Assembly: GCA_049515295.1 (NCBI GenBank)
Contig: JBEKUF010000001.1
Coordinates: 3,625-67,624 of the forward strand
Direction: 5' to 3'
Length of the DNA stretch: 64,000 bases
From: Verrucomicrobiia bacterium
Lineage (GTDB): Bacteria; Verrucomicrobiota; Verrucomicrobiia; Palsa-1439
Part shown: in pieces, positions 11,357 through 60,647 of the stretch
Position numbering within the stretch: position 1 is the first letter of the stretch
Layout of the letters: each line of letters begins with the position of its first letter
Made by a program: the position numbers and the translations under genes
Notes under the pieces: generated by a model
The model's input: the letters and a program-made list of their open reading frames with translations, nothing else
What the model was told of the DNA's origin: nothing
Databases searched by the model: none

Positions 11357-12115
11357 TCAGTACTTGTACACCAGCGAGCTGATCAACAGAATGTCGTTTT
11401 CCTTCTTACCCGATGCTGGTCGGCTGTCGAAGTGGTCGTCGGCCACAACTCGCAAACTGAAGCGGGTGTTGAAGGCAGCTTCCGCACCGACCTCACTGTT
11501 CAGTAGATAGTTATTGAAGTCGTCAACCTGTGGCATGAAATCGACTTCTTCCCAGACTTTCGCTGTTTTGGCTTTGTTTAGCGTGTGCTCGCCGCGTTCG
11601 GAGAAGCGTATCGTCACGTAACTCTCCGTATTGCTGCCCAACTTCTGGTCGACAAACGAGGGGCCAATCTCACCATTCAATTTCGATGCGTCGCTCTTGA
11701 TGAAGTAGTAGCCTGCCGCCGGCCCGACGATGATGCGGTATCGAACTTCCGCAATATCATCGTGGTACCCGTCAATGCGCGCACTCCCATAAAACCGCTC
11801 GGTGAACAGGCGTTTGTAGTCGATAAATCCGTGAATCGCTTCCGTCGACTGGGTTTGATTCGTCTGGCCCCAGTTGTTCAGCCCATACTGGCCATCGGCA
11901 CCCAACTTCAAGTGGTTTTGTTCCCAGATGTTTTCAGCCGTGGCGCTGCCGCTCAACAGGAACGTATTGGCGTTGCCCCGAGCCAACGACAAGCCGATCG
12001 ACCCGTCTCCATGCCATACCGGTGCACCGGACGCGGCGGAGGTTTGCGCCCATGCGCCATTACAGGCGATCAAGAACAGTACTGAAAGAGTAATTGCGAC
12101 GATCCGAGTTTTCAT
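11357..12115 (-). CDS. DUF481-family outer-membrane beta-barrel protein
   Basis: Signal peptide (VLFLIACNGAWAQ). Alternating hydrophobic beta-strand pattern ending …LISSLVYKY (aromatic C-terminus). Start refined to the internal ATG at 12113-12115. Confidence 0.6.
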   Translation of the reverse strand: MKTRIVAITLSVLFLIACNGAWAQTSAASGAPVWHGDGSIGLSLARGNANTFLLSGSATAENIWEQNHLKLGADGQYGLNNWGQTNQTQSTEAIHGFIDYKRLFTERFYGSARIDGYHDDIAEVRYRIIVGPAAGYYFIKSDASKLNGEIGPSFVDQKLGSNTESYVTIRFSERGEHTLNKAKTAKVWEEVDFMPQVDDFNNYLLNSEVGAEAAFNTRFSLRVVADDHFDSRPASGKKENDILLISSLVYKY

Positions 12116-12199
12116 GCGTTCCTTCTCCAGTTCGATTTCTGAATCCCTCACCAAGCGGGAGCAAAAATGCCCTAGAAATGCAGGATCGGTCAAGAGTTT

Positions 12200-13405
12200 T
12201 TAGTGCGCCTGCAGCAGCTCATTTCCAGACGATTCCATGGCTCGGGCGGCATCGGCGGGTGTCAACCGGCCCAGCGCCACCGCGTCGGCGATCTCGAAAA
12301 ATGCCTTCTGGTTGAATTCGTCCCAAAACGCGTAGCCCCACGGATTGTCGAGGTGCGAATACTTCAACGCGTCCATCATCGCCGGCGGAAACTGCGCGGT
12401 GGCGGCAGCCGCTTTCAACGCTGGGATCGCGTCGCGGCTCGTCGCAGCCAGCATCGCGCCTTCCGTCGAATAGAACCGTGCGAACTCCGCAGCCTCTTGT
12501 GGATGTTTCGTTCCGCGCCACACGCAGTTGCCGCCAATGGACAGTCGCGACCAGCGCACCTTGCCTTTCGGCACCGCCGCCACGTCCCATCGGAAATCCG
12601 AGACATGGTCAAATTCCGTCAACATGTACGTGCGGCCCACGAGCAGCGGGATTTTTCCGTCACGAAACAAATTCACGCCGTCGAACGCCTCCACCTCGCC
12701 CATTGCCGCCGTCGTGGGGGCCACTCCTCGCGCGACGAGATCCCGATAGAACTGTAACGCCGCAATTGTTTCCGGCGACTTTATCGTGCACTTGCCGCCG
12801 GCGAACAGGACGCCGCCGAACGATTGCACCAGAAGCAGCGGGCGCGGCAAAACGGTGGCGATCTTGTTTTGGCGCTGTGCCGCTTGTCCCGATCTGAGAG
12901 GGGCAAGACGAGAGCCGACATCGGCGAACTTCTGCCAGTCCCACGAGTCATCCGGCGGCGGCTCACCGCCCTTCTCAAACCAGTCGCGATTGTAGAAGAG
13001 CGCATCGGTGCTGAAATGAAATGGCACCATGTAGAGGACACCGTTGACCCGGCAGGCGTCGATCACCTCCGCATAATACCGGTCGGCCACCGGCGCGAGG
13101 TTCGTCGTCATATCAGCGACCTGACCGCGCTGCGCCAGCGACGGAAGGCGATCCACAATATAGTAAAACAAATCGGGAGCGGTTTTGCCCGCCAGTTGGA
13201 CGTTCAATTTTTGGAACTTGGATGTGTCGTAAATCACCCGCACGTGGATTTGCGGATGAGTGTGTTCAAACTGGGCGATAATCTTCTGATGAAGCGCCTG
13301 CTGCTGCGGCAGCGTCTCAATGGTCTGGTAGGTGATCTCCACCCGATTGTCCGCCGGTCGGGCGCAACTCGCGAGCAGCAGCAGGACGATCAGCAACCAC
13401 CTCAT
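12200..13405 (-). CDS. ABC transporter substrate-binding lipoprotein (family 1, sugar/muropeptide)
   Basis: Lipobox LLLLASCA after MRWLLIV (start at 13403-13405). Extracellular solute-binding fold. Overlaps the upstream murK-murQ stop by 4 nt. Confidence 0.7.
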   Translation of the reverse strand: MRWLLIVLLLLASCARPADNRVEITYQTIETLPQQQALHQKIIAQFEHTHPQIHVRVIYDTSKFQKLNVQLAGKTAPDLFYYIVDRLPSLAQRGQVADMTTNLAPVADRYYAEVIDACRVNGVLYMVPFHFSTDALFYNRDWFEKGGEPPPDDSWDWQKFADVGSRLAPLRSGQAAQRQNKIATVLPRPLLLVQSFGGVLFAGGKCTIKSPETIAALQFYRDLVARGVAPTTAAMGEVEAFDGVNLFRDGKIPLLVGRTYMLTEFDHVSDFRWDVAAVPKGKVRWSRLSIGGNCVWRGTKHPQEAAEFARFYSTEGAMLAATSRDAIPALKAAAATAQFPPAMMDALKYSHLDNPWGYAFWDEFNQKAFFEIADAVALGRLTPADAARAMESSGNELLQAH

Positions 13406-15111
13406 CGCAGGGCCTTTTTCACGTTCCAGCCACAACGAATCAACCGCCGGCGCGCTTCGTCCTCGCTGCCGCCCTGTAGCGCGGCCACGATGCGGCACGC
13501 CCGCGCGCGCAGCTTGGCATTGGTCGGTTTCACGTCCACCATTAGGTTGCTAACGACTTTGCCGAGGCGAATCATCGAGACCGTCGTCAGTGTATTGAGC
13601 ACGATTTTTGTCGCCGTGCCCGCTTTGAGCCGGGTCGAACCGGTGATTGCCTCTGGTCCCACGTGGAACAACAACAGCCTGTGCGTGGTCGACCGTGGCG
13701 GAGAAAAACACAGAAGGAACGTCTCGGCCCCCAATCGTTCCGCCTCGTCCAGCGCGCCCAACACGAACGGCGTCGAACCGCTGGCGGCGATGCCGACGAT
13801 CACGTCGCGCCGGCCAACGCCGCGTGCCCGCACGGCCTCCGCGCCCGCTGCCTGATCGTCCTCCGCACCTTCCACGGCCCGATGGAGCGCTGTCGCGCCC
13901 CCGGCGATGATCGCCTGGACCTTCTCGGGATCGGTGGAGAACGTCGGGGGACATTCGCTCGCGTCCAACACGCCCAACCGACCGCTCGTCCCTGCGCCGA
14001 TATAAAACAATCGCCCGCCCCGTTTGAATGCGCGCACGATGCCGCTGACGGCGCGTTCGATGGCGGGCTTGTTTTTCCGCAACGCGGGAACGACGCGCGC
14101 CTCCTCGCCCAGCATCACGTCGACAAGTTGCGACACGGACCGCTTGTCCAAATCCATCGTGCGTGGGTTGCGGTTCTCGGTAACTGGCACGGATAAGGAA
14201 GCGGTTTGCGGAGTCGATACAGACCGCGCGGACGCAAGGCCGGCCAGTTTCAACGCGCCGATCGCGGACTCGCCCCGCATCGGAATGATCTTCGCTCCCG
14301 GCAACAGGGTGCGGACACGGTTCCCGACGAGGATTGCCAGTTTTCGGTTGTGCCGTAACACGCCGCCGCTGAGCGCGACGCGCGGTTTCTCCAAGCTCAA
14401 TTTCTGCGCGACCGCGTGGCAATCCTGCGCGAGAAACGAAGCCGCCTGCAGCATCAACCCGGCATCCCCCTCGAGCATGTCCGTCGCCAGGGCCGCCACC
14501 GCATCCTTGCTGGCGTTCTGGATCCATCCCACAAGTTCGTCCGGCGAATTCAAACACAGGCGCCGAAGTGCGCGTTGCAAACGATGGCTAACGCGACCGT
14601 GCCGATCAAATTCACGGATCGCGGCTCTCAACCCCGTCAACGCGATCCAGTAGCCGCTGCCATGATCGCCCAACAGGTGCCCCCAGCCGCCCGCTCGCGC
14701 CACCCGCGCGCCGTTGCGACCGACCACACACGACCCGGTGCCGCTCACGATCACAATGCCGGAACCGTGCGGACCGAAGGCCGCCGCCAGAGCCGAATCG
14801 GTGTCACTGCCCACATACGCATCCGCGCCCGGCCAGACGCGCTCCGCCAGTGCGCGGGCCCGGGAACGGTCGGCATCTGTTCGGCAACCGGCGAGGCACA
14901 GGGCCAACGATGTGGGACGGGATGCGAGACCGCGTTTGATCCCGCGGAGCCGCTGCCGGGCCTCGGCGTCCGACAGAAGTTTGAGGTTGAAGGGACCGGA
15001 TTCGAGTCGAGAGAGGATTCGACCGTGTCGATCGGCCAGAAGCGCAACGGTTCGCGTGCCGCCGCCCTCGATGCCGAGAAAATATGCGTCAGGTGTGGGT
15101 TCCCCGCCCAT
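13402..15111 (-). CDS. murQ: fusion protein: BadF/BcrA-type sugar kinase (MurNAc/GlcNAc kinase-like) plus N-acetylmuramic acid 6-phosphate etherase
   Basis: N-terminal 300 aa carry FLGIEGGGTRT…GSGYWIA (ASKHA/BadF kinase). C-terminal 300 aa carry SIS-domain MurQ motifs (…NKPAIERAVSGIVRAFKRGGRLFYIGAGTSGRLGVLDASECPPTF…). Single uninterrupted ORF. Confidence 0.75.
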   Translation of the reverse strand: MGGEPTPDAYFLGIEGGGTRTVALLADRHGRILSRLESGPFNLKLLSDAEARQRLRGIKRGLASRPTSLALCLAGCRTDADRSRARALAERVWPGADAYVGSDTDSALAAAFGPHGSGIVIVSGTGSCVVGRNGARVARAGGWGHLLGDHGSGYWIALTGLRAAIREFDRHGRVSHRLQRALRRLCLNSPDELVGWIQNASKDAVAALATDMLEGDAGLMLQAASFLAQDCHAVAQKLSLEKPRVALSGGVLRHNRKLAILVGNRVRTLLPGAKIIPMRGESAIGALKLAGLASARSVSTPQTASLSVPVTENRNPRTMDLDKRSVSQLVDVMLGEEARVVPALRKNKPAIERAVSGIVRAFKRGGRLFYIGAGTSGRLGVLDASECPPTFSTDPEKVQAIIAGGATALHRAVEGAEDDQAAGAEAVRARGVGRRDVIVGIAASGSTPFVLGALDEAERLGAETFLLCFSPPRSTTHRLLLFHVGPEAITGSTRLKAGTATKIVLNTLTTVSMIRLGKVVSNLMVDVKPTNAKLRARACRIVAALQGGSEDEARRRLIRCGWNVKKALR

Positions 15112-15134
15112 ACAACAGCGGGATGTTAACAGAT

Positions 15135-16361
15135 TCAGGACGCCAGCGGCAAGTAGACGCTGAACGTGCTGCCTTGCCCGACCGTGCTCTGGACGTCGAT
15201 GGCGCCGCCGTAACGGGCGACGAGTTCACAGACGATGGCCAGGCCCAGACCCGTGCCTTCCTTCTTACTGGTGAAGTACGGCTGAAAGATCTTGCTGATG
15301 TTCTCAGGCTTGATCCCCGCGCCGTTGTCGGCCATAACAATCTTTGCCATCGGCCTCTGCGGATCAAACGAGTCCGGCCGGAAAGCAAACTCCGACGGCA
15401 TGGACGTGGCGACCGTGGCGGAAAGCTCCAGGGTTCCGCCCCCATTCATGGCATGCAGGGCGTTCACACCGAGATTGATCAGCACCTGCAGGATTTCGGC
15501 GGGACTGACTGTCAGGGTCGGATCCGGATCGCTGACCGTGAACTTGATTTCCGCGGCCCGGTTGGCAGGATGCGCCTTGATCAAGGCCGCCGCGTCTTCC
15601 AGCAGCTTGCTGGCACTGATTGTCTCTGGTGCCTCCTGACGGCCTCGCGAGAAATTCAAAAACCGCCGCGCGATGTCCTTGCAACGATCAATCTCCCGCT
15701 GAATGGACGCAAGGCGCTGTTTGACCTGTCGCGAGGTCTCCTGGTCGGAAACGTTGAGGGAAGCCAGATCGCGCCCGAGCAGGTCCGCGTAGCCGGCGAT
15801 GATCGCCAGTGGATTGTTCATCTCATGCACGACCCCGGCCGAGAGCACGCCCGCCTCGACGGCGCGGCTGAGTTGCGCCAACTCGCCCGCCAGTTGGTCG
15901 TTCGTTCGTTCGAGGGTGCGGAAGGTTTCCTCGGATGCGAGCTTTTCCTGGCGGCGTTTCATGCACTTGTCGAGCACCTCACGCACCGAGAATACATCAA
16001 ACGGCTTGTTGAGGTAATCCGCGGCGCCGTAGCGCACCGCCGCGCGAGCGGTCTCGATTGTCTCGTAGCCGGTCAGCATCACGCATTCGATGTCGGGGTC
16101 GATCTCCTTCAACTCGCGCAATACATCCACGCCGCTAAGGTCCGGCATCTTGATGTCGAGGACGGCCGCGTCCACGACGTGACTGCGCGCGTATTCAATG
16201 CCCTCACGACCGCAGGTGGCGATCACACAACTGTAGCGGTCCTTGAAAACAATGCGGAGCGATTCGCGTGGCCCCGGTTCATCATCCACGATGAGCAACG
16301 TCGGTTTCTCGCCCACCTTGGCTGGCGGAGGTTCTATCGTCAGTGTTTCCAATGTTCCCAT
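15135..16361 (-). CDS. hybrid receiver-histidine kinase (N-terminal REC, C-terminal HisKA+HATPase)
   Basis: REC (LLIVDDE…D…K). H-box VVHEMNNPLAII. N/G boxes (…NLGVNALHAM…, GTGLGLAIV). Confidence 0.8.
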   Translation of the reverse strand: MGTLETLTIEPPPAKVGEKPTLLIVDDEPGPRESLRIVFKDRYSCVIATCGREGIEYARSHVVDAAVLDIKMPDLSGVDVLRELKEIDPDIECVMLTGYETIETARAAVRYGAADYLNKPFDVFSVREVLDKCMKRRQEKLASEETFRTLERTNDQLAGELAQLSRAVEAGVLSAGVVHEMNNPLAIIAGYADLLGRDLASLNVSDQETSRQVKQRLASIQREIDRCKDIARRFLNFSRGRQEAPETISASKLLEDAAALIKAHPANRAAEIKFTVSDPDPTLTVSPAEILQVLINLGVNALHAMNGGGTLELSATVATSMPSEFAFRPDSFDPQRPMAKIVMADNGAGIKPENISKIFQPYFTSKKEGTGLGLAIVCELVARYGGAIDVQSTVGQGSTFSVYLPLAS

Positions 16362-16377
16362 GGTCTATTCTCGCTGG

Positions 16378-17610
16378 CTAGAATTTCAGACTGGTTGTGA
16401 GCAGGACCGCGTTGGCGCTGGTTTCCCACGTGCCGTCCGCTGCCGTCAGGCCGTTGGCGATCCGCGCCGGGCTGCTGCTGACCGTGCGATCCGGCGAGTA
16501 ACTGTATTGGTAAGCAATGTCCACACTGAATCGCGTCGTCGTGTAGCCGAGCCCAACGCTGAACACGTGCCGCTCGCTGTCCGGCAGCGTGGGGGAGAAC
16601 GTGCTATTGGGCACCGTGTTTTGGGAGTAGATATAGCCGCCGCGCACCGTCCAATGTTGGTTCACGTCGTATTGTACGCCGAACTCATAGAAGAAACTGT
16701 CCATCCAGTTGAAATGGATGGTCTCGCCATTGAGCCCTGAACCGGGCGCATGCACGACCACGTTGTTCAGTGTGTTCCAATCGGTCCACTCTATATCGGC
16801 TTCCAGCTTCAACTTCGGGACGGGCCGAAACGCGTACCCCGCAGCCACCGATTGCGGGAACGGAATCGATGTTTGAGCGGAGTTCGATGTCTTGATAACG
16901 GGCGGAACACTCACGTCGGCGTTGCCCTTCAGCGTGACCGTAAACGGGCTGCGATACACCAGCCCGATGGTGTGTTGCGGCGTAATCTTCCACATCAATC
17001 CCGCCGTGGCTCCCAACGCCAGGCCATCCCCATTAAAATGGGCATGACCATCCGGAAGTGGTGCCGCGGGAACGTGGCTGTTCAATCCACTATACGCGTC
17101 GTAGATGTTGAGGCCGGCCCCGAGTGACAGGTGCTCGTTGAACTTATAAGCCACCGTCGGCTGAATGTTGATTACCTGCAACGCGTCGCTCGTGAGGATA
17201 TATCGAAACGGCCCGTTGGGCGCGTAGTCCGCACGGTTGCCGTAGGGAACGTTGACACCGACGCCGAAACGCCACGGCGACTTCGATGCGCCGAAGTCAG
17301 TCGAGAGATACAGGTGCGGGATGAACGACATCGAATTCATTTCACCGCCCGAACCAGCCCCTTTCAACTGAAAATCCGGAAAGTTGACCATCCCGCCGCC
17401 CGTAACTTCCGTGCCTTGAATCTGAGTCAGCCCGCCCGGATTGTAATAGATCGCCGACGCATCATCCGCCTGCGCAACGAACGCTTCTCCCTGCGCCGTG
17501 GCGCGGGCATCCTGGTCGGGGTTCTTGAAGCCGAGCGCGAATACCTCGGGCATACCGGTACCGATTGCCAGCGCTACCGCGCCGATCATCCTGCATGTGT
17601 GCTTGTTCAT
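16378..17610 (-). CDS. FadL/OmpP1/TodX-family outer-membrane channel for hydrophobic compounds
   Basis: Signal peptide. Conserved N-terminal hatch region NPAG-like (…AIYYNPGGL…). About 410 aa beta-barrel ending …LTTSLKF. Start refined to 17608-17610. Confidence 0.65.
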   Translation of the reverse strand: MNKHTCRMIGAVALAIGTGMPEVFALGFKNPDQDARATAQGEAFVAQADDASAIYYNPGGLTQIQGTEVTGGGMVNFPDFQLKGAGSGGEMNSMSFIPHLYLSTDFGASKSPWRFGVGVNVPYGNRADYAPNGPFRYILTSDALQVINIQPTVAYKFNEHLSLGAGLNIYDAYSGLNSHVPAAPLPDGHAHFNGDGLALGATAGLMWKITPQHTIGLVYRSPFTVTLKGNADVSVPPVIKTSNSAQTSIPFPQSVAAGYAFRPVPKLKLEADIEWTDWNTLNNVVVHAPGSGLNGETIHFNWMDSFFYEFGVQYDVNQHWTVRGGYIYSQNTVPNSTFSPTLPDSERHVFSVGLGYTTTRFSVDIAYQYSYSPDRTVSSSPARIANGLTAADGTWETSANAVLLTTSLKF

Positions 17611-17836
17611 GGCTCCGTCCTCCTGGCTGCCGTGTCGTTCCGCCTGTCGAAACGAGACTGCTGCATCCCCATTCAGCAATGCGTATGCCACGGGACGACA
17701 GGGAGACAGAGAAAGTATCTGGGTTGCCCCGGAACCAGTAGTTCCGAAGGGCGTGTGTGCCTGGAAGCCATGGCCCCGTTCACCGGAGCGCAAAATTGGC
17801 CAACCAACTGGTGTTTTGCGGACAACTTTGGATGGG

Positions 17837-19321
17837 TCACATCGCCGCCGGCGTGTTCTTGTCCAACTCCTCCGGTTCTTCGTCCGGTTCTCCCGCCCGA
17901 CTCGAGGCTATGTGAAGCTTGTCCATCTTGTAACGCAGCATTCGCCGGGTGATGTGCAGCGCACGCGCGGCTTCCGTGATCACCCCGTCCGTGCGACGCA
18001 AGGCCTCCTCGATGGCGCGGCGCTCCAGGTCCTCCGTGACCTTCGGCAGGTCCAACCCGGTGTCGTTGAACTCCCATTTCTCCCCCAGATCGACCTGGGG
18101 CGTGGTCGCCGCCAGTCGCGAGGTGATTTGCGCAGTCGCCTGATCCGCCTGTGAAATCACAAACGGCAGGTCTTCCGCGCTGATCTTGGTGGCGTCGCAG
18201 GTAACCAACAAGCGCTCGATGGCGTGCTCCAACTCGCGCACATTGCCCGGCCACGGGTACGACAGCAGTAAGTCCATGGCCGATGGCGAAAATTGCGGGG
18301 CCTCGCGGTTCAATTCCTTGGCAAAGCGCTGCGCGAAATGCAACACCAACTGCGGGATATCGTCTTTGCGGTCGCGCAACGCGGGAACTGTGATCGGCAC
18401 CACGTTGATGCGGTAGTACAGGTCTTCGCGAAACGCGCCCCGGGCAATTTCCTTCTCCAGATCGCGGTTGGTGGCGCACACCAGCCGAACATTGATGCTG
18501 ATCGTTTCCTGGCCACCCACGCGGCGGATTTCGCGCTCCTGGATTGCCCGCAACAGCTTGCTTTGGGTGCCGAGCGGCATCTCGCCAATCTCATCAAGGA
18601 ACAACGTCCCCCCACCTGCCGCCTCGAACATTCCGATGCGCCGCTGCAGCGCGCCTGTAAAGGAGCCCTTCTCATGCCCAAACAACTCGCTTTCCAACAA
18701 CTCGCCGGGAATGGCGGCACAGTGTACGGGAATAAACGGGCCCTCCCGACGGACGCTGTTGTAATGCAGGGCGCGAGCGACGAGCTCCTTGCCCGTGCCC
18801 GTCTCGCCCAGCACCAAAACGGTCGTTTCCGTATCCACAACGCGTTGCACAAGGGCGTAGACCTTTTGCATCGCCGCGCTGGACCCGACAATATTCTCGA
18901 ACTTGCTGACCGCCTGGAGTTCTGTGCGCAACCGGCCCACCTCGCGTTCGAGCGCCTTCTCCTTGAGGATGCGATCCACCACCAACCGAATCTCGTCTAC
19001 ATCGAACGGCTTGTTCAGGTAATCGGCGGCACCCATCTTCATCGCCTGAACGGCCGGTTTGGCTTCGGTGATGGCGGTGACCATAACCACGGGCATCGTC
19101 GGATTGAGCTGCAAAATCTTTGAAAGGACTTCCAGCCCGTCCATGCCGGGCATTTTCATGTCGAGCAGCACGATGTCGAAACGCTCCTCCCGGCCCATCA
19201 CTTCCAACCCGCTGGTACCGTCCCCCATGAGCGTCACATCGTAGCGGTCCTTCAAAATGAACCGTAACGACTCGCGTGGACTCTCCTCGTCGTCAATGAC
19301 CAGAATCCTTGCCTTTGACAT
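17837..19321 (-). CDS. sigma-54-dependent response regulator (NtrC family: REC + AAA+ + HTH)
   Basis: REC (ILVIDDEE…D…K). AAA+ Walker A GETGTGKE. GAFTGA-like ESELFGHEKGSFTGA. C-terminal Fis-type HTH. Confidence 0.85.
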   Translation of the reverse strand: MSKARILVIDDEESPRESLRFILKDRYDVTLMGDGTSGLEVMGREERFDIVLLDMKMPGMDGLEVLSKILQLNPTMPVVMVTAITEAKPAVQAMKMGAADYLNKPFDVDEIRLVVDRILKEKALEREVGRLRTELQAVSKFENIVGSSAAMQKVYALVQRVVDTETTVLVLGETGTGKELVARALHYNSVRREGPFIPVHCAAIPGELLESELFGHEKGSFTGALQRRIGMFEAAGGGTLFLDEIGEMPLGTQSKLLRAIQEREIRRVGGQETISINVRLVCATNRDLEKEIARGAFREDLYYRINVVPITVPALRDRKDDIPQLVLHFAQRFAKELNREAPQFSPSAMDLLLSYPWPGNVRELEHAIERLLVTCDATKISAEDLPFVISQADQATAQITSRLAATTPQVDLGEKWEFNDTGLDLPKVTEDLERRAIEEALRRTDGVITEAARALHITRRMLRYKMDKLHIASSRAGEPDEEPEELDKNTPAAM

Positions 19322-19399
19322 CTGTTTGTCTCCTCCTTCGATCCATTCTCTGTTCCACCTTGTGGCCAACCGGCGACCGCGCCCTCCCCCGGTGCCTCG

Positions 19400-21739
19400 T
19401 CACGGCTGGTCGCTCCGACGGCCAGCGTCCGGATCCCAGCGTTCCGTAACCCGGTTGCGGACGGCGTTGGCTTCGGTTGACGGGGGCGGACCCGCCAAAG
19501 CTTCTGCGCTCAAGCCCTCGCTCAAAACATCGTCGTCCGCGGGTCGCTGGGCTTTGACCGGCACCACCATCGAGACGGTCGTGCCCCGGCCCAGCATGCT
19601 GTCAACGTCCAACCGGCCACCGTGCCGCTCGATGATCTTCTTCACAATCGTCAGCCCCAACCCGACCCCGACGTTGCGCGTGGTCACAAACGGCTCGGTC
19701 ACGCGTTTCAGATTTTCCAAGGCGATTCCCTCGCCCGTGTCCTGCCAATCGATCCGCACGGCACCACCTGCGGGTAGCGTTCCGCCCGGAAAATCCGTCG
19801 GCAGTGCATCGACCGTATTGATCGAGAGCCGGCCACCACGGGGCATGGATTGCACGGCATTCCGCAGCACATGCTCAAACGCCTGCATCAAGCGAATCCG
19901 GTCCCCCTCCAACCGCGCAAACTTGTGGGCGAAATTCTTCTTCACGGTCACCACGGGCGCCGGCGCGGGCTCGGGCGCTTTTTCGCCCACGGCCATTACA
20001 TACGCAATTTGTTTTCGGCTGAATTCCTGGGTCGCGTTCTTGACGCACGTGTCGATCAGGTCGCCCAGCACAATCTCCTCATTGACCAACAGCAACGGAT
20101 GCGCGAAGAACGTCAGATTATTCACCAGCACATCGACTCGGTTCACCTCGTTGGCAACGGTGGTGCTGAACTGCTCGCGAAACTCCTTGTCATCGTGCCG
20201 CTCGGGCAGCAATTGCGCGAAGATCTTGATGGACACCAGCGAGTTCTTCAATTCATGAGACAACCGCGCCGCCAGCCGCGTGAAAAACTCCTTATCGGCC
20301 AATTCGCGGGCCCGAGCCTGCTGCAGGCGGACCTGCGAGAGGTCTTCAATGAGCGCGACCGCGATCAATCCTTCTCCACCCGCCACGTGGCTGTCCGCCC
20401 CCATGTCAAACCGCGTGGCGCTGATGCCGAGCGGGCGATGTCCCCGGGGCAGCACCACTTCTCGCTGACGAATATCCCCGCCCGTCTGCAGGACCTCGAA
20501 CACGACGTCCGCGACCCGGCCCGGCAGCCGCCGGATGTCCTGCCCCACCACGGATTTCTCTTCGATGTCGAGCAATTCACACGCGCGGTGATTCACGGTG
20601 AGGATGCGATTGTTCTGCCCGACCACCACCACACCCGTCTGGACATGCGCCAGCACTTCGTTCACAAAGCGTTGCTGGCTGGCCACGCGCTCGCGCAGAC
20701 GAAGATTGCGAATCGCCTGGGCCAACTGCCCCATCAAGTAGTACACCAGCTCCAATTCCTGGTTGGTCAGTGGCTCTCCCGTGATCTTGCCGCTGAAAGT
20801 CAACACGCCCCACAACTGGTCTTCATCGAAAATCGGCACGGCGACATCGGCCCCGAGCGTATCGAATTCGCGGGCCACTTCCGGATCGTAATCCAGCGCC
20901 AGCGAGTCCGTGACTTGGGCCCGCAGCAGGATCCGCGCTTCGCGCGTCAGATAACTGACAATGCCGGAGTCGGCGCTCAACCGGAAGTGCTCCACCAGGT
21001 GCAGCGCCAGACCGGTGCTGCGAGCGACCACAAATTGTTCACCGCCAGCCGTGGGAGGTCCGGCAAACAGGTCGCTCGGCACCCGTCGGGTGAAAATCGC
21101 TGCCTTGCCGATGCCGAGCAACTCGCGGACGAGACGCAGGAACTCGGACACCAACTCGCCTTCGCTGACATACTGGCTCAGGATTCGCGACAAATCCTTC
21201 AGGGCACCGCGGTACCGGTATGCGTCAAACGCCGGAGCGAGCGACGGCAGGTGGGTCGGAGCCGCCACGGGGCGTGACTGCGAGGCGACCGCCGGCACTG
21301 GAGCTGCGGCCTGTCGCTGACGCGCGATCACGGCATCTGCCCGCTTTAGCTTCGACTGGGCGTCGCGCAATTCGAAAAACGTGCCCAGCGCCTGCTTCAA
21401 ACGGTCAGCAGAATCCACGTCGGAAACGACGAGCCAGTCTTCGGGAACGGAATACAGGGTTTGTTGGGCCGCCGTGGCCCGCATAACAACAGCCTGGTTT
21501 TCCTCTAGGCGCGAGGATGCCAGTGACTCCATCGCCCATCGCGTGGTTTCTCCCAATGAGACAGCGTCCAGGATCACGGCATCCACCAATCGCAACCAAG
21601 TGGAAAACAGGCCGTCGAATCGTTGTCGAGACGGTTCGGACGGCAACGGCAACAAGACGATGTTCGTTTTCTCACCGAGAATGTCCGTGAGAAGTCGCTG
21701 TGTCTCGGCCGAATTGGTCAGTAACAATGCTGTCTTCAT
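19400..21739 (-). CDS. soluble multidomain sensor histidine kinase (receiver-like N-domain, GAF, PAS, HisKA, HATPase)
   Basis: No TM segments. H-box LSHELKNSLVSIKIFAQLLPERHDDKEFREQF. C-terminal HATPase (GVGLGLTIV). Start codon overlaps the upstream ketosynthase stop (ATGA). Confidence 0.8.
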   Translation of the reverse strand: MKTALLLTNSAETQRLLTDILGEKTNIVLLPLPSEPSRQRFDGLFSTWLRLVDAVILDAVSLGETTRWAMESLASSRLEENQAVVMRATAAQQTLYSVPEDWLVVSDVDSADRLKQALGTFFELRDAQSKLKRADAVIARQRQAAAPVPAVASQSRPVAAPTHLPSLAPAFDAYRYRGALKDLSRILSQYVSEGELVSEFLRLVRELLGIGKAAIFTRRVPSDLFAGPPTAGGEQFVVARSTGLALHLVEHFRLSADSGIVSYLTREARILLRAQVTDSLALDYDPEVAREFDTLGADVAVPIFDEDQLWGVLTFSGKITGEPLTNQELELVYYLMGQLAQAIRNLRLRERVASQQRFVNEVLAHVQTGVVVVGQNNRILTVNHRACELLDIEEKSVVGQDIRRLPGRVADVVFEVLQTGGDIRQREVVLPRGHRPLGISATRFDMGADSHVAGGEGLIAVALIEDLSQVRLQQARARELADKEFFTRLAARLSHELKNSLVSIKIFAQLLPERHDDKEFREQFSTTVANEVNRVDVLVNNLTFFAHPLLLVNEEIVLGDLIDTCVKNATQEFSRKQIAYVMAVGEKAPEPAPAPVVTVKKNFAHKFARLEGDRIRLMQAFEHVLRNAVQSMPRGGRLSINTVDALPTDFPGGTLPAGGAVRIDWQDTGEGIALENLKRVTEPFVTTRNVGVGLGLTIVKKIIERHGGRLDVDSMLGRGTTVSMVVPVKAQRPADDDVLSEGLSAEALAGPPPSTEANAVRNRVTERWDPDAGRRSDQP

Positions 21740-23025
21740 AGGCCGCCAGCTTCGCCCCCGCCATTTCGTACGTTGGTCTGACCGTTTCGATATCGTTCGA
21801 CCACCAGGGTGGTGTTGCGCCCCCCGAACCCCAGCGAGTTGCTCACCGCGATGTCGACACGGCGGTGACGCGCCACGTTCGGGACAAAATCCAAATCACA
21901 TTCGGGATCGGGGAATTCGTAATTGATGGTCGGCGGGATAACATTGTCGCGGATGGCCAGGCAACAAGCTCCCAGCTCCACGGCGCCGCATGCGCCTTGC
22001 ATGTGCCCCAGTGCCGCCTTGATCGAGCTGATGGGCAGATCGTATGCCCGGTCTCCAAAAGCTTTCTTTATGACGGTGGTTTCCGCGCGATCCCCCAATG
22101 GCGTTGACGTGCCGTGGGCATTCAGGTAGTCCACCTGCTCCGGCCGCACGCCGGCCCGCGCCAGGGCTGTTCGCACGCAACGCACGGCCTGCGTCCCCTC
22201 GGGGTCGGGCTGACACATGTGGTAGGCGTCGCACGTGGACGCCCACCCAGTCAATTCCCCATGGATGCGGGCCTTGCGTTGCAACGCATGTTCCAACTCC
22301 TCGACCACTAGGACACCCGCGCCTTCGGACATGACGAATCCATCGCGCTTTTGGTCGAATGGCCGTGACGCGTGTGCCGGTTCATCATTTCGCGAGGACA
22401 TCGCGTGGCTGGTGCCGACCGCCGCCACAACGATCGGGTGAACCGGCGCTTCCGCCCCGCCAGCCAACATGACGTCCACATCACCAGCCACAATCATGTC
22501 GGCAGCCTGTGCAATGGCCGCACTGGCGCAGTCGCAACCGGTGGCAATCGTGAAACTGGGGGCGTGCAATCCAAAGTGCAGTGAAACCTGTCCACCACAC
22601 GACCCCGTGAACACGGCGATGCTGGTGTAGGCGCTCATGGCATCGAAGCCCCGCGTCTTAAACGTATCGTACTCCTGGCAGGCGAATCCCCAGCCCGCGT
22701 ACGCCGTACCCAGCGCCAAACCGATACGTTCGCGCGCCTCTTTCTCAAGTTTCAACCCGGCATCCGTAATCGCGATGTACGACGCCACAAGACCAAAGTG
22801 GGCAAAGCGATCCATGCGCCGCACGTCCTTGCGACTGATCCAATCCTCGGGACGAAAATCGCGCACCTCACCGGCAACTTTCCACGGGCAGTCGGAGTTC
22901 ATCAATGCGGGAGAAAGAGCCACGCCGGACTTTCCCGCGAGAATATTCGACCAAAACGGCTCGGTGCCAATCCCCAACGGCGTCAGCAATCCAATTCCCG
23001 TAATGACAACTCGACGTCTCTTCAT
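21736..23025 (-). CDS. free-standing beta-ketoacyl synthase (FabF-like, KAS II family)
   Basis: VVITGIGLLTPLG N-terminus, active-site Cys region (TIATGCDCASAA), His-His pair (YLNAHGTSTPLGD, ALGHMQGACG), C-terminal SNSLGFGGRNT. Start refined to 23023-23025. Confidence 0.8.
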   Translation of the reverse strand: MKRRRVVITGIGLLTPLGIGTEPFWSNILAGKSGVALSPALMNSDCPWKVAGEVRDFRPEDWISRKDVRRMDRFAHFGLVASYIAITDAGLKLEKEARERIGLALGTAYAGWGFACQEYDTFKTRGFDAMSAYTSIAVFTGSCGGQVSLHFGLHAPSFTIATGCDCASAAIAQAADMIVAGDVDVMLAGGAEAPVHPIVVAAVGTSHAMSSRNDEPAHASRPFDQKRDGFVMSEGAGVLVVEELEHALQRKARIHGELTGWASTCDAYHMCQPDPEGTQAVRCVRTALARAGVRPEQVDYLNAHGTSTPLGDRAETTVIKKAFGDRAYDLPISSIKAALGHMQGACGAVELGACCLAIRDNVIPPTINYEFPDPECDLDFVPNVARHRRVDIAVSNSLGFGGRNTTLVVERYRNGQTNVRNGGGEAGGL

Positions 23026-23192
23026 CAATAACACCTGTAGTACACGTAGACGAGGGACAAAATCGTCCGCCCGCGTCAGCGCGTACGACGCGTGCCTCCT
23101 CCAAACAGGTTCCCCACACCACAGATTATACAAGGATTGCCCATAGTGTAAAGCACTTATTTGATCGGTTGGACAATTTTGTCCGGCAGGCC

Positions 23193-25304
23193 CTACTTGA
23201 CGGGGAGATTGATCTGGAAAGTTGTTCCCTTGCCCTCGACACTCGAAACGGTGATGGTCCCGCCGTGGTCGCGGACGATCTTTTGTGAAATGGACAGCCC
23301 CAGACCCGTACCCTCCTTCTTCGTGGTGAAAAACGGGTCGAATAGGCGACCTCGAACCGCAGCGGGAATGCCGGGGCCGTTGTCTGATACCTCGATAACA
23401 GCGGAGTTTCGGCTCCCGTTGCCGCTGGCGCTGATGTCCAGTTGTGTCACCCCCGTTGCCACCCGGACCTTGCCTCGCTCCTGAAGCGCATCGGCAGCGT
23501 TGCCCAGCAAATTGACCAGCACTTGCAGGATCTGGTGCTTGTCTACCTTGATGGTTGGATTCCCGTGAAACGCCCGGGTCAATTCGATGCGCTTGGCCTT
23601 CAGGCGCGGCTGCACCAAAAGAATCGCCTCTTCGACAAGGTCATTGGCGGGCTGTTCCTGGATGTTCACCTGAGCCGGCCGCGCAAAGGCCAGCATGCTC
23701 TCGATTACCTTCGTAATCCGGTCCACGTCCTTCAGCACGAGTTTGCCGAATTCATTTCGGAACTCCGGGTCGTCGACGCGCTCGGGCATCAACTGCGCGA
23801 ACGTCTTGATGGACGCCAATGGATTACGTATCTCATGCGCGACACCGGCGGCGATCGTTCCCAACTCGACCAGGCGGTTTTTGCGGAGCGCTTCGTCTTC
23901 GATGCGGCGGTATTTCACCGCCAGTGCGACTTCAGTGGCAAGCGTTTCCAGAACACGCAAGTCACTGGCGAAAAACATGTCGCGGTTCAGTTTCTCGCCG
24001 AGACCAATGAGCCCCACCAACCGGCCGTCGAGGATCATCGGCACGCACAAGGCAACCTTGAGCAGGCTCATCTCCTCCTCCAACAGTTGTCGCACTCGCG
24101 GGGGCTCGCGCCGCATCATTTCATCGCGCACGAGTTCATCTTGCTTGTCCTGCAGCCATTTCATGATGGCCGCGTCTTCATGCAGAACGAGCGCGTCCAC
24201 ATCATCCTGGGGTCCCAGGCCACTTTCCGCCTGCAATCGGAGGTCTCCCGACAGCGCATCCTGCACCAGCACCAGCACCCGCGACACCTGCATCTGGGAA
24301 TGCAAAGTGGTCGCGACCGTCGCGAGCACCTGGTCAATCGTCGGCAATGTGCTCAATTCCCTGACCAACCCGGAAAGGGCGTCCTGATAGCCGTAACGCG
24401 TTCCGAACATCCGTTCCTGCATCATCCGTTCCGCGCGTGGCAGCAGTTTGGGCAGACTGATCGTCAGGCCCATGCCGATGGCCATGGCCATCGTAAACGA
24501 AAATATCAGCTGTGCCTCGTTCATGAATTGAGGCGCAATCAGGGTCACGCCCCCGATGAAGATCAGGCTGACAACGGCGGTCACAATCATGGTGACCAAG
24601 TAGAGGAACACCCGCGCGATGACCACGTTGTAGTCCGCCAACCGCGCCTTGTTCATGACCCGCACGAGGAAAATGAGGTTCAGCGGCAGAACGAAAAAGC
24701 CAAACGGCGGAATATTGACGTTGTACTCCAGCGGAAAGATGACCGAACTTGTCGTCAAGAACAGGATCAACCAGGCGCCAAGGAAATACATCAATTGCGA
24801 CCGGCGATACCCGACTTGCTGTTGGGCATTGCGCCAAACCAATGCCGCGCCCACAAATTGGGTGCTACAGAGATAGGCCATCAGCCATGGATAAAACGTC
24901 CGGTTGTAGTGGACGTAATGGTGCATGAACGGACAGGCGCGCAACCCGACAATCAGCTCTCCTCGCACCAGCAGAATCAGCAACAACGCTGCACTCCCAT
25001 AGGCGGCCAGGATTAGCCATTTCATTCGCCGCAGCCGGTCCGCCAGGGCACAGAGTGTGTGAAACCAGGCCGCATGCGCTGAAATGGAGAACGTCAATGT
25101 CAAGTAGGCGGCGAGCAACGCGTGGTCTCGCGACAATGGGTAGTAATAAAACGAAAACCCTGCAGTCCAGGCACCCATCACCCCCAAAGTCAGGCCGAAC
25201 AGCGGTCCCAAAGTTATGTAGCGATTTCGCCATGCCACAGCCGCCGCGGCCACGAAGCAGACCGCGGCGTTGACCCACACCACAAAAAAAATCAACGTCG
25301 TCAT
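23193..25304 (-). CDS. membrane sensor histidine kinase (N-terminal multi-pass 7TM-type domain, GAF, HisKA, HATPase)
   Basis: About 300 aa of 8-10 TM helices with no periplasmic domain, then GAF-like, then H-box VAHEIRNPLASIKTFAQLMPERVDDPEFRNEF, paralogous to the 19400 kinase. HATPase GTGLGLSIS. Confidence 0.8.
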   Translation of the reverse strand: MTTLIFFVVWVNAAVCFVAAAAVAWRNRYITLGPLFGLTLGVMGAWTAGFSFYYYPLSRDHALLAAYLTLTFSISAHAAWFHTLCALADRLRRMKWLILAAYGSAALLLILLVRGELIVGLRACPFMHHYVHYNRTFYPWLMAYLCSTQFVGAALVWRNAQQQVGYRRSQLMYFLGAWLILFLTTSSVIFPLEYNVNIPPFGFFVLPLNLIFLVRVMNKARLADYNVVIARVFLYLVTMIVTAVVSLIFIGGVTLIAPQFMNEAQLIFSFTMAMAIGMGLTISLPKLLPRAERMMQERMFGTRYGYQDALSGLVRELSTLPTIDQVLATVATTLHSQMQVSRVLVLVQDALSGDLRLQAESGLGPQDDVDALVLHEDAAIMKWLQDKQDELVRDEMMRREPPRVRQLLEEEMSLLKVALCVPMILDGRLVGLIGLGEKLNRDMFFASDLRVLETLATEVALAVKYRRIEDEALRKNRLVELGTIAAGVAHEIRNPLASIKTFAQLMPERVDDPEFRNEFGKLVLKDVDRITKVIESMLAFARPAQVNIQEQPANDLVEEAILLVQPRLKAKRIELTRAFHGNPTIKVDKHQILQVLVNLLGNAADALQERGKVRVATGVTQLDISASGNGSRNSAVIEVSDNGPGIPAAVRGRLFDPFFTTKKEGTGLGLSISQKIVRDHGGTITVSSVEGKGTTFQINLPVK

Positions 25305-25354
25305 ACCGCTACTCGATCGCGCCGCTTCGCCTGTGCACGAGCATTCTCCGTGGG

Positions 25355-25933
25355 CTAATGGTCCACAGTCCCCAGTCGCCGCAAGGGTAGGAACGCACAC
25401 ACGTGTCGGCGGTACTCTTCATATTCCGTCCCAAACTTCGCGATCATCTCCCGTTCCTCCCGCCGCCAACGAGCCAGCAGTAGCGGGATATACACTCCCA
25501 CCGATAGCACCATTGTCCACCAGGCATTTCCCACCAGCGGAATCGAAATCACCTCCAGCATAATGGCCGAATAGGCCGGGTGACGCATGTACCGGTAAAC
25601 TCCTTCACGAATCAACTGATGATCCCCCCGAATTTCCAGATTCAGACTCCAATACCGTCCCAAAGTCCGGATCGCCACGAGCCGAAGTGCCAATGATCCC
25701 GCAAACATGACCAGCCCAAGGATGACCAGCGGGATATTTACTGGCCGTCGCAGAAGGAAATACTCCAGACCGGTTGCCAAATAGATCAGCGAGTGCAGGA
25801 TGTGAAACGCCACATACGACCACAGCATCTTCACCTCGCCACGCTTGGCTTGGACGCTGAAACGGCGCTCATACAAGCGTTCGGCAACGGCGAAGACCAG
25901 AAAACCGAATAGAAACCAACCGAATTTCCCCAC
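25355..25933 (-). CDS. isoprenylcysteine carboxyl methyltransferase (ICMT)/phospholipid-methyltransferase family membrane protein
   Basis: Five-TM, 192 aa. C-terminal signature …YRYMRHPAY…E…EE… matches PF04140/PF04191. Probable GTG start. Confidence 0.65.
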   Translation of the reverse strand: MGKFGWFLFGFLVFAVAERLYERRFSVQAKRGEVKMLWSYVAFHILHSLIYLATGLEYFLLRRPVNIPLVILGLVMFAGSLALRLVAIRTLGRYWSLNLEIRGDHQLIREGVYRYMRHPAYSAIMLEVISIPLVGNAWWTMVLSVGVYIPLLLARWRREEREMIAKFGTEYEEYRRHVCAFLPLRRLGTVDH

Positions 25934-26003
25934 GAAGTCATTGTAACGGTTGTCTCCAGTCCGTCAAAGACTTAATTCCGCGGCGCGCCGATTGGCGAAA
26001 TAG

Positions 26004-28484
<2,481 letters not shown>

Positions 28485-41656: not shown

Positions 41657-41669
41657 GCACTCCCAATGT

Positions 41670-48222: not shown

Positions 48223-48484
48223 ACAAGCCTCCAAAGATCCACGCATCCGCACCCACCACGAGGCTTCAGCGGCTGCCCGATACATGGTTCCGCTGGCACT
48301 CCCGTGGCGATCAGCCTTTTCACCCCATCGGTCATGCTTCTCACGGCCGTTCCTCTCATAGCTCCAAATCCCTTCACGAAAGAAGAAAGAATCAATCGTA
48401 GTCTGCCTCGTCTTCCAACCGGGCTGTCGACGATGCCGCCCGGTTTTCCGATGGCCGGCGCCAAGCCTTTCCATTGGTCCGGGC

Positions 48485-60630: not shown

Positions 60631-60647
60631 ATTCGCATCGACCCAAC

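Follow-up and report, generated by a model that had tools for sequence, protein, structure and literature searches.

A FabF-type ketosynthase encoded with two histidine kinases, a sigma-54 regulator and a FadL-family channel in Verrucomicrobia: a candidate circuit for a fatty-acyl-derived signal

Introduction

In the Phc system of Ralstonia, the methyltransferase PhcB makes 3-OH fatty-acid methyl esters, which are sensed by PhcS/PhcR. In the DSF (diffusible signal factor)/Rpf system, the crotonase-type synthase RpfF works with the hybrid kinase RpfC and the REC-HD-GYP protein RpfG, and the pathway has no sigma-54 step. PpyS and DarB, which make photopyrones and dialkylresorcinols, are FabH/KAS III-like signal synthases paired with LuxR-solo receptors. 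Here we analyse seven consecutive minus-strand genes (15135-25933) in a stretch of 64,000 nucleotides from a Verrucomicrobiia bacterium (contig JBEKUF010000001.1 of assembly GCA_049515295.1, positions 3,625 to 67,624), which we call the window. These genes encode a FabF-type ketosynthase together with two histidine kinases, a sigma-54 regulator, a FadL-family channel, a methyltransferase and a REC-kinase, and we propose that they may form a circuit for a fatty-acyl-derived signal that the cell makes itself.

A literature search found no described module of ketosynthase, kinase, sigma-54 regulator and FadL, and nothing relevant on the function of the HisKA_7TM sensor domain. We regard the module as not previously described. 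It is related to known circuits that pair a synthase with a receptor kinase or that sense lipids through a two-component system, and its type of synthase is unusual.

The module shares with Phc, in terms of genes alone, an S-adenosylmethionine (SAM) methyltransferase encoded with a membrane sensor kinase; its variants carry an ICMT, a class-I methyltransferase or a LuxD-like::methyltransferase fusion. Unlike in Phc, 7 of 21 close relatives do without the methyltransferase, and the constant enzyme of the lineage is the ketosynthase. As in DSF/Rpf, an enzyme acting on intermediates of fatty-acid synthesis is encoded with a membrane kinase, and the deltaproteobacterial form of the module has a REC-HD_5 output under a sigma-54 promoter. 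However, the synthase here is a ketosynthase, and the output in the window is a FadL channel and a REC-kinase, not an HD-GYP protein. PpyS and DarB resemble our enzyme in being thiolase-superfamily condensing enzymes, which in their case make cell-cell signals, but the enzyme here is an elongating, Cys-His-His FabF-type ketosynthase paired with histidine kinases. Among the best 25 of 33 model matches listed for it, DarB does not appear at E<=0.01; the deltaproteobacterial ketosynthase matches that model marginally, with 27 bits for a cut-off of 550.

In the DesK/DesR-des system of Bacillus, the gene for a lipid-modifying enzyme likewise adjoins that for a multi-transmembrane (multi-TM) kinase without an extracellular domain. 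DesK/DesR differs in being of the HisKA_3/NarL type, with no sigma-54 dependence and no FadL, and its enzyme is a regulated target in a unit of its own. In CqsA/CqsS-LuxO of Vibrio and LqsA/LqsS of Legionella, the gene for an enzyme using fatty-acyl thioesters adjoins that for a multi-TM kinase lacking a periplasmic domain, and the Vibrio pathway, like ours, ends at an NtrC-type sigma-54 activator (PMC3285556). Our synthase is FabF-type rather than dependent on pyridoxal phosphate, our sensor is HisKA_7TM-GAF rather than CqsS-like, and the module is larger by a FadL channel, a REC-kinase and a second kinase, which is cytoplasmic. Finally, PrsK/PrsR also combines multi-TM, GAF and kinase domains with an NtrC-type regulator and with an enhancer box and sigma-54 promoter at its targets (PMC1569441); it is set apart by the sub-cut-off scores of our proteins, by the lack of a PrsT, exosortase or exopolysaccharide (EPS) neighbourhood, and by FadL as the local target.

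Results

Gene content of the locus

The genes are listed below in the order in which they are read, with the shorthand used in this paper.

25355-25933, minus strand: ICMT, an ICMT/PEMT-family membrane carboxyl methyltransferase, 192 aa (PF04140 75.9 bits, PF04191 46.9 bits)
23193-25304, minus strand: HK7TM, a multi-TM then GAF-HisKA-HATPase kinase, 703 aa (Pfam and translation)
21736-23025, minus strand: KS, a FabF-type beta-ketoacyl-ACP (acyl carrier protein) synthase paralogue, 429 aa (TIGR03150 494.1 bits)
19400-21739, minus strand: HKsol, a soluble, cytoplasmic kinase, predicted pseudo-receiver-GAF-PAS-HisKA-HATPase, 779 aa (Pfam and structure prediction)
17837-19321, minus strand: RR54, an NtrC-type regulator with REC, Sigma54_activat and HTH_8 domains, 494 aa (PF00072 98.7, PF00158 242.8, PF02954 47.9 bits)
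16378-17610, minus strand: FadL, a FadL/TodX-family outer-membrane channel with a signal peptide, 410 aa (PF03349 201.2 bits)
15135-16361, minus strand: RECHK, a REC-HisKA-HATPase protein, 408 aa (domain content)
13402-15111, minus strand: a BcrAD_BadFG and GKRP/SIS fusion (GlcNAc-kinase-like and MurQ-like), 23 nt after RECHK, of uncertain membership

An earlier note on this DNA had described seven consecutive minus-strand genes with these domains, and our translations and Pfam/NCBIfam scores bear this out. The gaps that it gave (50, 167, -4 with an ATGA overlap, 78, 226 and 16 nt) were reproduced from the coordinates, and the H-box strings quoted for the two kinases occur verbatim in the translations. 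Identical peat-metagenome contigs carry public gene calls, and the gene lengths in these agree with ours.

The ketosynthase

KS can be aligned over its whole length with solved FabF structures (best E 1e-112) and matches only condensing-enzyme and thiolase-type models in Pfam and NCBIfam. Judged by its sequence and surroundings, it is a conserved, dedicated paralogue and not the housekeeping fabF. It passes the FabF equivalog TIGR03150 only marginally, with 494.1 bits for a cut-off of 493.75. Its clade, all from Verrucomicrobia, was monophyletic in 200 of 200 neighbour-joining (NJ) bootstraps. Identity is at least 59% within the clade and about 46% to the acpP-linked verrucomicrobial FabFs, which share a mean of 57% with the FabFs of other phyla. 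When one genome per species was scanned, every match with at least 61% identity came from a Verrucomicrobia metagenome-assembled genome (MAG), and the same neighbours surrounded each of them wherever the contig was long enough. Below the clade, identity falls to 51% or less and the matches are ordinary FabFs behind fabG-acpP. Neither acpP nor fabG lies upstream in any of the 26 KS-clade loci; one or the other does so in most loci of 44-51% identity, including the verrucomicrobial L088 and L091. The window contains no acpP-fabF block, though it has two further ketosynthase genes.

All 26 clade members retain Cys163, His303, His340, Lys335 and the gatekeeper Phe400. The back gate is another matter. 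In FabF it consists of I108-F202 and gates the pocket at C7-C8, and an I108F mutant elongates mainly C6 to C8 (PMC9006962). Position 108 is isoleucine in 42 of 48 generic FabFs; in the KS clade it is tyrosine in 21 members, among them the window KS, and glutamine in the other 5. Position 202 is leucine, phenylalanine or valine in 25 of the 26, and further clade-specific changes affect T270 (to Cys), L342 (to Gln), G198 and V134. Because I108 is changed and the I108F mutation narrows FabF to C6-C8, it is reasonable to infer that the substrate specificity of KS is altered, possibly towards medium chains.

The other two ketosynthases of the window lie in clusters of their own on the plus strand. 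One (41688-42932; 44% identical to KS, Cys-His-His present) belongs to a cluster at 40284-44031 with a class-I SAM methyltransferase (40284-41210), a Polyketide_cyc2/SRPBCC protein (41207-41656) and a FAD_binding_3 oxidoreductase (42868-44031), which looks like a small type-II polyketide synthase-like or lipid-tailoring cluster. The other (60648-61925; 31% identical) lies within 59641-62478, preceded by a PP-binding (ACP)-FabA-like dehydratase fusion (59641-60630) and followed by an adh_short/KR gene (61939-62478). This cluster, beside a gene for a PEP-CTERM protein, is of an acyl or aryl-polyene-like kind.

The module in other lineages

In the Verrucomicrobia clade the flanking genes, ligA and the GKRP fusion, are syntenic as well, so conserved order within this clade alone is weak evidence. 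A deltaproteobacterial form of the module, modules with non-syntenic flanks and replacement of the enzyme remove this objection. Word-index protein searches gave at least 120 matches, all of the same clade among the matches listed; the distant members were found through a representative-cluster search and a metagenome scan.

In deltaproteobacterial MAGs (Syntrophaceae and relatives), a KS gene lies immediately 5' of the gene for a HisKA_7TM-GAF kinase that is 29-33% identical to HK7TM across 550-657 aa. A metagenome scan seeded with this kinase found KS directly upstream in 80 of 80 loci, and the pair is also adjacent in the genome loci L036, L039 and L054. An epimerase-type short-chain dehydrogenase/reductase (SDR) accompanies it in 43 of 55 loci and a class-I methyltransferase in 8, and 8 of 11 loci carry a sigma-54 AAA::HisKA fusion plus a sigma-54 regulator. 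The operon (L093-L172, L036, L039 and L054) can be written SDR-(methyltransferase)-KS-HisKA_7TM kinase-(sigma-54 AAA::HisKA fusion)-sigma-54 regulator. It is followed by a sigma-54-driven REC-HD_5 (HD-GYP-like) gene and by a gene for a conserved 252-aa cytoplasmic protein without a Pfam match. The fusion of a receiver-less sigma-54 AAA+ domain to HisKA is an odd architecture.

The deltaproteobacterial and verrucomicrobial KS clades were paired in 0 of 200 NJ bootstraps. A common origin of the two is not supported, and a loose grouping of ketosynthases not linked to acpP may reflect long-branch attraction. A deltaproteobacterial-type KS also occurs on a 3.7-kb contig labelled Candidatus Hodarchaeum mangrovi (JAEOUE010000133.1, L087), with a weak kinase match behind it (21% identity, covering one third of HK7TM). 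Its presence in an Asgard archaeon MAG is probably bin contamination rather than an archaeal gene.

Two loci (L173 and L174) hold HK7TM-KS-HK-RR54-FadL between unrelated flanks, and this divergent, non-syntenic module shares 53% (KS), 52% (RR54) and 35% (FadL) identity with that of the window. A fusion of a LuxD-like acyltransferase with a SAM-methyltransferase takes the place of KS at L179 and the P0279 locus, and the gene for this fusion overlaps the HK7TM start; loci of this type retain the receiver-like-GAF-PAS kinase, FadL and the REC-kinase, with a sensor identity of 24-26%. The product of such a fusion could be a fatty-acid methyl ester rather than a membrane lipid. In another distant locus, SDR/ICMT precedes HK7TM and there is no KS. 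The constant theme is a HisKA_7TM-GAF kinase with a fatty-acyl enzyme, usually with FadL and a REC-kinase and often with a sigma-54 regulator.

These results bear on the simplest objection, that KS is an ordinary fabF whose neighbourhood is lineage synteny without functional meaning. Apart from the syntenic ligA and GKRP-fusion flanks, what speaks for this is that KS reaches, if only just, the fabF equivalog cut-off. It does not explain a separate clade with an altered back gate and acpP linkage in 0 of 26 loci, the three KS genes in the window alone, the module between unrelated flanks, or a second phylum that carries the module with the same cis-elements. We give this explanation hardly any credence. 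The housekeeping fabF that the earlier note had allowed for therefore fails on the separate clade, the lack of acpP/fabG linkage and a gene order kept in every related locus.

Two observations concern the surveyed loci themselves. On one contig (L180, JGI 3300020640), three tandem HisKA_7TM kinases (955, 531 and 819 aa) lie beside PilN/PilO-like genes, which appears to show a different use of this sensor class. In several long-read MAGs, the ligA beside the module is split into two or three open reading frames (for example, L013 5400-7500 and L011 4643-6660), most likely through assembly frameshift errors rather than as pseudogenes.

Transcription units and a shared operator

The regulatory sites that we assign in the window are the following.

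25940-25967, minus strand: sigma-70-like promoter TTGACG-16-TACAAT upstream of ICMT (10/12 match)
23171-23184: operator box 1 (GGACAATTTTGTCC on the plus strand, GGACAAAATTGTCC on the gene strand), with the KS -35 following 18 nt downstream
23125-23152, minus strand: sigma-70-like promoter TTTACA-16-TATAAT of the KS-HKsol-RR54 unit (11/12, the best in the region)
23055-23068: operator box 2, gene-strand sequence GGACGATTTTGTCC, within the 5' leader of KS at about 30 nt from the ATG
17788-17801: a candidate upstream activating site whose gene-strand sequence is GGCCAATTTTGCGC; the -24 element follows 97 nt downstream
17675-17690, minus strand: sigma-54 promoter TGGCATACGCATTGCT with -24 GG and -12 GC, 64 nt upstream of the FadL ATG

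Between 14900 and 26200, no sigma-70-like promoters score better than the two directly before ICMT and KS. As the GTG start of ICMT is 6 nt past its -10 box, the ICMT mRNA may be leaderless. The -35 and -10 elements of the KS promoter are conserved across related loci. Before FadL, TGGCAY-N5-YTGCT is present in 22 of 23 related RR54-FadL intergenic regions, where GG and GC are fixed and the spacer varies. Matches to the sigma-54 consensus are not enriched in the whole window (35 found, 34.4 expected), so this count is what chance gives, and the FadL site is credible for its position and cross-locus conservation only. Since sigma-70-like promoters precede ICMT and KS and a sigma-54 promoter precedes FadL, the locus probably comprises three transcription units (ICMT-HK7TM, KS-HKsol-RR54 and FadL-RECHK). 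Thus, the single seven-gene operon of the earlier note gives way, on promoter scans and footprinting across related loci, to three units. One relative, in which two unrelated opposite-strand genes separate HK7TM from KS, fits this division. The FadL-RECHK gap, 16 nt in the window, is 3-45 nt in 21 of 22 related loci, and the remaining one has a 9-nt overlap.

Exact and one-mismatch GGACAAWWTTGTCC sites occur only twice in the 64-kb window, and these two flank the KS promoter. Boxes 1 and 2 are conserved in related loci, with GGACGTTTTTGTCC kept in related leaders, and a CAATTTTG core is conserved about 90-100 nt upstream of the FadL sigma-54 promoter. When a relaxed palindrome was searched for in 472 kb of related loci, 23 of the 26 matches fell at most 260 nt upstream of KS or at most 330 nt upstream of FadL. 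The same operator, ACAAAATTGT, is common to the verrucomicrobial and deltaproteobacterial modules and stands at both sigma-70 and sigma-54 promoters. In Deltaproteobacteria, the enzyme-kinase operon has a perfect TTGACA-17-TATAAT promoter that is overlapped by TACAAAATTGTT boxes, and a TACAAAATTGTT box precedes the sigma-54 promoter (TGGCAAACTTTTTGC) of the REC-HD_5 gene in 9 of 9 distinct loci. RR54 is 47% identical to the deltaproteobacterial regulator, and the recognition helix is conserved. The simplest reading is that RR54 would bind both the KS and the FadL sites, modulating its own sigma-70 operon and activating the sigma-54 operon. NtrC at glnAp1/glnAp2 is a precedent for one regulator acting at a sigma-70 and a sigma-54 promoter.

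A three-mismatch operator match at 40221-40234, upstream of the cluster with the second ketosynthase, was treated as chance because 12 such matches were found for 7 expected (5 of 100 shuffles reach 12) and no sigma-54 motif lies near. We read box 2 as a DNA operator rather than an attenuator because no RNA family or structure was found in the KS leader: there was no Rfam match in 14000-27000 and no RNAalifold consensus, and the fold compared with shuffles gave a z of -0.77. The leader itself (23026-23120, minus strand; L010-L044) opens in Verrucomicrobia with a conserved G-rich motif, GTGGGGAAC; deltaproteobacterial operon leaders (L100, L163 and others) have the G-rich motif GGGGTGAC. After the G-rich motif come GGAGG and a GC-rich hairpin of variable sequence.

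The membrane kinase and its kinship with PrsK

The translation of HK7TM contains about nine TM segments, seven of them above threshold in a hydropathy scan, with loops of at most 25 aa and no large periplasmic loop. The window protein scores 22.2 bits with the Pfam model HisKA_7TM (PF16927; threshold 28.6), which many HK7TM orthologues and the deltaproteobacterial homologue (62.8 bits) pass. A search with the sensor region found 100 representative clusters at E<=1e-3 among 1.84 billion proteins; the sensor-domain family is small.

HK7TM aligns with the PrsK model over its full length and RR54 scores 430.5 bits with the PrsR model, and the earlier note had raised the possibility of a PrsK/PrsR-like pair of the PEP-CTERM/exosortase type, with KS incidental; such a pair would regulate PEP-CTERM/exosortase and exopolysaccharide genes. 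The PEP-CTERM proteins that it reported in the window are indeed there, two in number: one at 800-1762 (plus strand) ends in the signal …VPEPSAAMLL…RRR and also has NHL repeats, and one at 57753-59573 (plus strand) ends in …IPEPSSLLLT…RRRRH. A PEP-CTERM gene also lies downstream at one deltaproteobacterial locus. Haft et al. place PrsK/R/T in Proteobacteria only and report none in Verrucomicrobium despite its 65 PEP-CTERM proteins (PMC1569441), so that a phylum rich in these proteins is there described as lacking PrsK/R. However, the proteins of the locus stay under the curated cut-offs (HK7TM 151 and HKsol 60 for 300 with TIGR02916; RR54 430.5 for 502.6 with TIGR02915), and the AtoS/AtoC and NtrC models score higher. 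No PrsT, exosortase/EpsH or EPS genes were found in the module or its 10-kb flanks, neither of the two PEP-CTERM genes in the window has a sigma-54 motif or an operator box upstream, and the conserved local target is FadL. Because of these scores, and of the missing promoter and operator at the PEP-CTERM genes of the window, we do not count the locus as PrsK/PrsR, and we hold this account, which also fails for want of a PrsT, exosortase or PEP-CTERM-box context at the locus, to be very unlikely. The PEP-CTERM box is described in words as a 17-nt motif ending in TTTACA (PMC1569441); operator ACAAAATTGT does not match this description, which should not be read as a tested difference. The kinship of HK7TM with the PrsK sensor class is nevertheless real, and the module should be informative on what PrsK-like kinases might sense.

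The soluble kinase and its coupling to KS

The kinase core of HKsol is 30% identical to that of HK7TM across 241 aa. The stop codon of KS and the start of HKsol overlap (ATGA in the window) or lie at most 3 nt apart in 26 of 26 loci, and L025 keeps KS-HKsol although HK7TM is not adjacent there. The translational coupling of KS to a sensor kinase proposed in the earlier note, when checked for synteny of the pair, is thus invariant for HKsol; in this lineage it does not extend to the membrane kinase.

The N-terminus of HKsol is a 145-residue receiver-fold domain that Pfam does not detect. It is the most conserved part of the protein, and sequence-level matches to it are confined to the loci of the KS clade. 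A structure prediction was needed to place it because the profile match to REC is not significant (hhalign against true REC domains found the right register, weakly, with E 0.06). The AlphaFold2 model has a (beta/alpha)5 fold with a pLDDT (predicted local distance difference test) of 79, and its top Foldseek matches in the PDB are receivers and pseudo-receivers (E ~2e-4). The beta3 aspartate, D58, is invariant, but the acidic pair (T8-N9 instead) and the lysine are absent, and on this basis the modelled domain is a pseudo-receiver.

One could imagine that KS is a co-sensor, a trigger enzyme whose acylation or ACP-binding state is reported to HKsol through the pseudo-receiver, with no product acting as a ligand. 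The invariant coupling, the degenerate, highly conserved and clade-restricted N-terminus and the retention of KS-HKsol in L025 would all agree with this. On the other hand, the KS catalytic residues are under full purifying selection, which is expected of an enzyme and not required of a sensor; the deltaproteobacterial KS is coupled to a membrane kinase without a pseudo-receiver; and KS can be replaced by an unrelated acyl enzyme. We see only a slim chance that this is how the module works.

Regulator, channel and methyltransferase

RR54 has the GSFTGA loop in its Sigma54_activat domain and a -24/-12 promoter at its target, as expected of an NtrC-type activator; with the LuxO model it scores 380 bits, under the cut-off of 800. 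The receiver of RECHK is 38% identical to that of RR54, and both have PRESLR and ADYLNKPFD. Since it is a paralogue of the RR54 receiver, this suggests that it may compete for, or relay from, the same kinases. FadL clearly exceeds the PF03349 threshold (201.2 bits for 29.7), but with the E. coli-type FadL equivalog NF007988 it reaches only 69.8 of 585 bits and is therefore a family member, not a FadL orthologue. ICMT scores 75.9 bits for 24 with PF04140 and 94.4 for 160 with the protein-S-isoprenylcysteine O-methyltransferase equivalog NF040696. Its gene abuts or overlaps that of HK7TM in distant loci. ICMT is an accessory member: that the gene is present and co-oriented, as the earlier note had it, is correct, and its place in the system is qualified by its loss from 7 of 21 close relatives.

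The AtoS and AtoC models, which are the best NCBIfam matches of the kinase and the regulator though below cut-off, and FadL as the sigma-54 target raise the question whether the locus senses and takes up an exogenous hydrophobic substrate, in the manner of TodS/TodT-TodX or AtoS/AtoC, with KS merely assimilating or elongating what is imported. The genes downstream would fit uptake or salvage. The BadFG/GKRP fusion follows RECHK in 22 of 23 loci at gaps of 20-80 nt (it is absent in L031 and L173) and may be co-transcribed with the FadL-RECHK unit, as may the solute-binding protein found in about 15 of them. However, the conserved module has no beta-oxidation or oxygenase genes, the KS gene is tied to a kinase gene by translational coupling and does not sit among the induced genes, and the deltaproteobacterial module has no transporter output. 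We consider this account improbable.

Other genes of the window

In the window, the fusion forms part of a minus-strand set (11357-15111) with an overlapping solute-binding protein and a DUF481 outer-membrane protein, which looks like amino-sugar or cell-wall salvage. Two very large, secreted-looking proteins are encoded at 45994-53533 (minus strand). One, of 1682 aa, has a subtilase S8 domain and ASH/HYDIN/DUF1573 Ig-like repeats; the other, of 826 aa, has no significant family.

Discussion

In sum, a FabF paralogue, HisKA_7TM-GAF kinases, a sigma-54 regulator and a FadL-family channel are encoded together in Verrucomicrobia under three promoters, and the theme recurs in Deltaproteobacteria with a conserved operator and conserved sigma-54 motifs. 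Based on these data, we put forward a model in which the module is a circuit for a fatty-acyl-derived signal that the cell makes itself. We hold this model tentatively, as the leading one, at somewhat short of an even chance.

The first part of our model concerns the synthesis of the signal. We propose that KS would draw acyl-ACP and malonyl-ACP from the housekeeping fatty-acid synthase and that its changed acyl-pocket gate would make the product an unusual one, probably of medium chain length. Further modification may follow in many relatives, by an ICMT-type or class-I methyltransferase and by an SDR.

The second part explains how the signal could be sensed. The fatty-acyl-derived molecule would be the cue for both kinases, the membrane-embedded HK7TM and the KS-coupled, cytoplasmic HKsol, and these would control RR54.

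The final part involves the output. RR54 would bind the GGACAA-NN-TTGTCC boxes at the sigma-70 promoter of the KS operon, giving feedback, and from its site upstream of the sigma-54 promoter it would switch on the FadL channel, for the passage of hydrophobic molecules, and RECHK. As the receiver of RECHK is a paralogue of that of RR54, RECHK may serve as a sink for phosphate or as a relay. The direction of regulation and the phosphotransfer partners are conjectural parts of this scheme, as are the departure of the product from the cell and its role as the ligand. FadL handles long-chain N-acyl-homoserine lactone signals (PMC9938287), and a FadL-type conduit for hydrophobic signals therefore has precedent.

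Several points weigh against this model. We infer the KS product, its export and its binding by the kinases from the arrangement as a whole. The product of a FabF-type KS stays attached to ACP, and the core module has no thioesterase or other enzyme to release it. As the deltaproteobacterial KS scores almost like a canonical FabF and has leucine in the gate (I108L), the pocket argument is limited to the Verrucomicrobia clade. Among 21 related loci, ICMT is present in 14 and an SDR in 9, and in the 7 without ICMT it is ligA that abuts HK7TM. The boxes over the -35 and spacer of the deltaproteobacterial promoter suggest repression of the KS operon, and such negative feedback is more typical of homeostasis than of classic autoinduction. 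Finally, the related loci are MAGs or metagenomic contigs of uncultured organisms, and all of the evidence is comparative. The earlier note had already proposed a lipid-signal synthesis-and-sensing locus; of this, the association of fatty-acyl enzymes with HisKA_7TM kinases, the sigma-54 regulator and FadL has gained comparative support, and the signal molecule itself stays at the level of conjecture.

The repression just described leads to the most serious competitor of the signal model, a lipid-supply or membrane-homeostasis switch akin to DesK/DesR or FadR. Here HK7TM would sense the bilayer or the acyl pool, RR54 would repress KS and induce import through FadL, and there would be no exported signal. 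A multi-TM kinase without a periplasmic domain that adjoins a lipid enzyme would suit this role, and boxes that overlap or flank the KS sigma-70 promoter, with the same motif activating FadL, would amount to opposite control of synthesis and uptake. ICMT also matches the phospholipid methyltransferase family PF04191, and the DesK thermosensor is known to receive a different input when FabF activity changes (PMC3996569). However, KS lies inside the regulator operon and is not a separate regulated target. The sigma-54 output in Deltaproteobacteria is a REC-HD_5 regulator, not a lipid enzyme or transporter, and the thioesterase-like::methyltransferase fusion of the distant variants would probably yield a methyl ester and no membrane lipid. 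Both the swap to this fusion and the HD-GYP-type output fit pure homeostasis poorly and the synthesis and sensing of a lipid molecule well. We therefore regard a purely homeostatic switch as unlikely, though deserving of attention.

The self-made-signal model can be extended beyond this locus. We know of no report since 2006 of what stimulates PrsK, which belongs to the HisKA_7TM-GAF class. It is conceivable, though we think it rather doubtful, that HisKA_7TM-GAF kinases are receptors for fatty-acyl-derived, often methyl-esterified molecules, and that they define a phylum-spanning family of lipid cell-cell signalling systems with FadL, a sigma-54 output and interchangeable synthases, either a FabF-type ketosynthase or a LuxD-like thioesterase-methyltransferase fusion. 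In a bolder variant of this idea, KS might dock on the pseudo-receiver of HKsol and so report the acyl-ACP pool directly.

Peat, soil and sediments are rich in Verrucomicrobia and syntrophic Deltaproteobacteria. To our knowledge, no cell-cell or lipid signalling system has been described for either group. The module is a concrete candidate, with a small set of enzymes, two kinases, a single sigma-54 promoter and one regulator whose operator is defined, and its cis-regulatory logic is defined and conserved across two phyla. If homeostasis proved true, control of the FadR or DesK type, setting fatty-acid synthesis against uptake, would gain a new sigma-54/two-component counterpart in this module. 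If the KS product is the ligand, the module would add a new chemical class and a new type of synthase, an elongating FabF-type ketosynthase, to bacterial signalling, and it would offer a first indication of the stimulus to which the HisKA_7TM/PrsK-type sensor domain responds.

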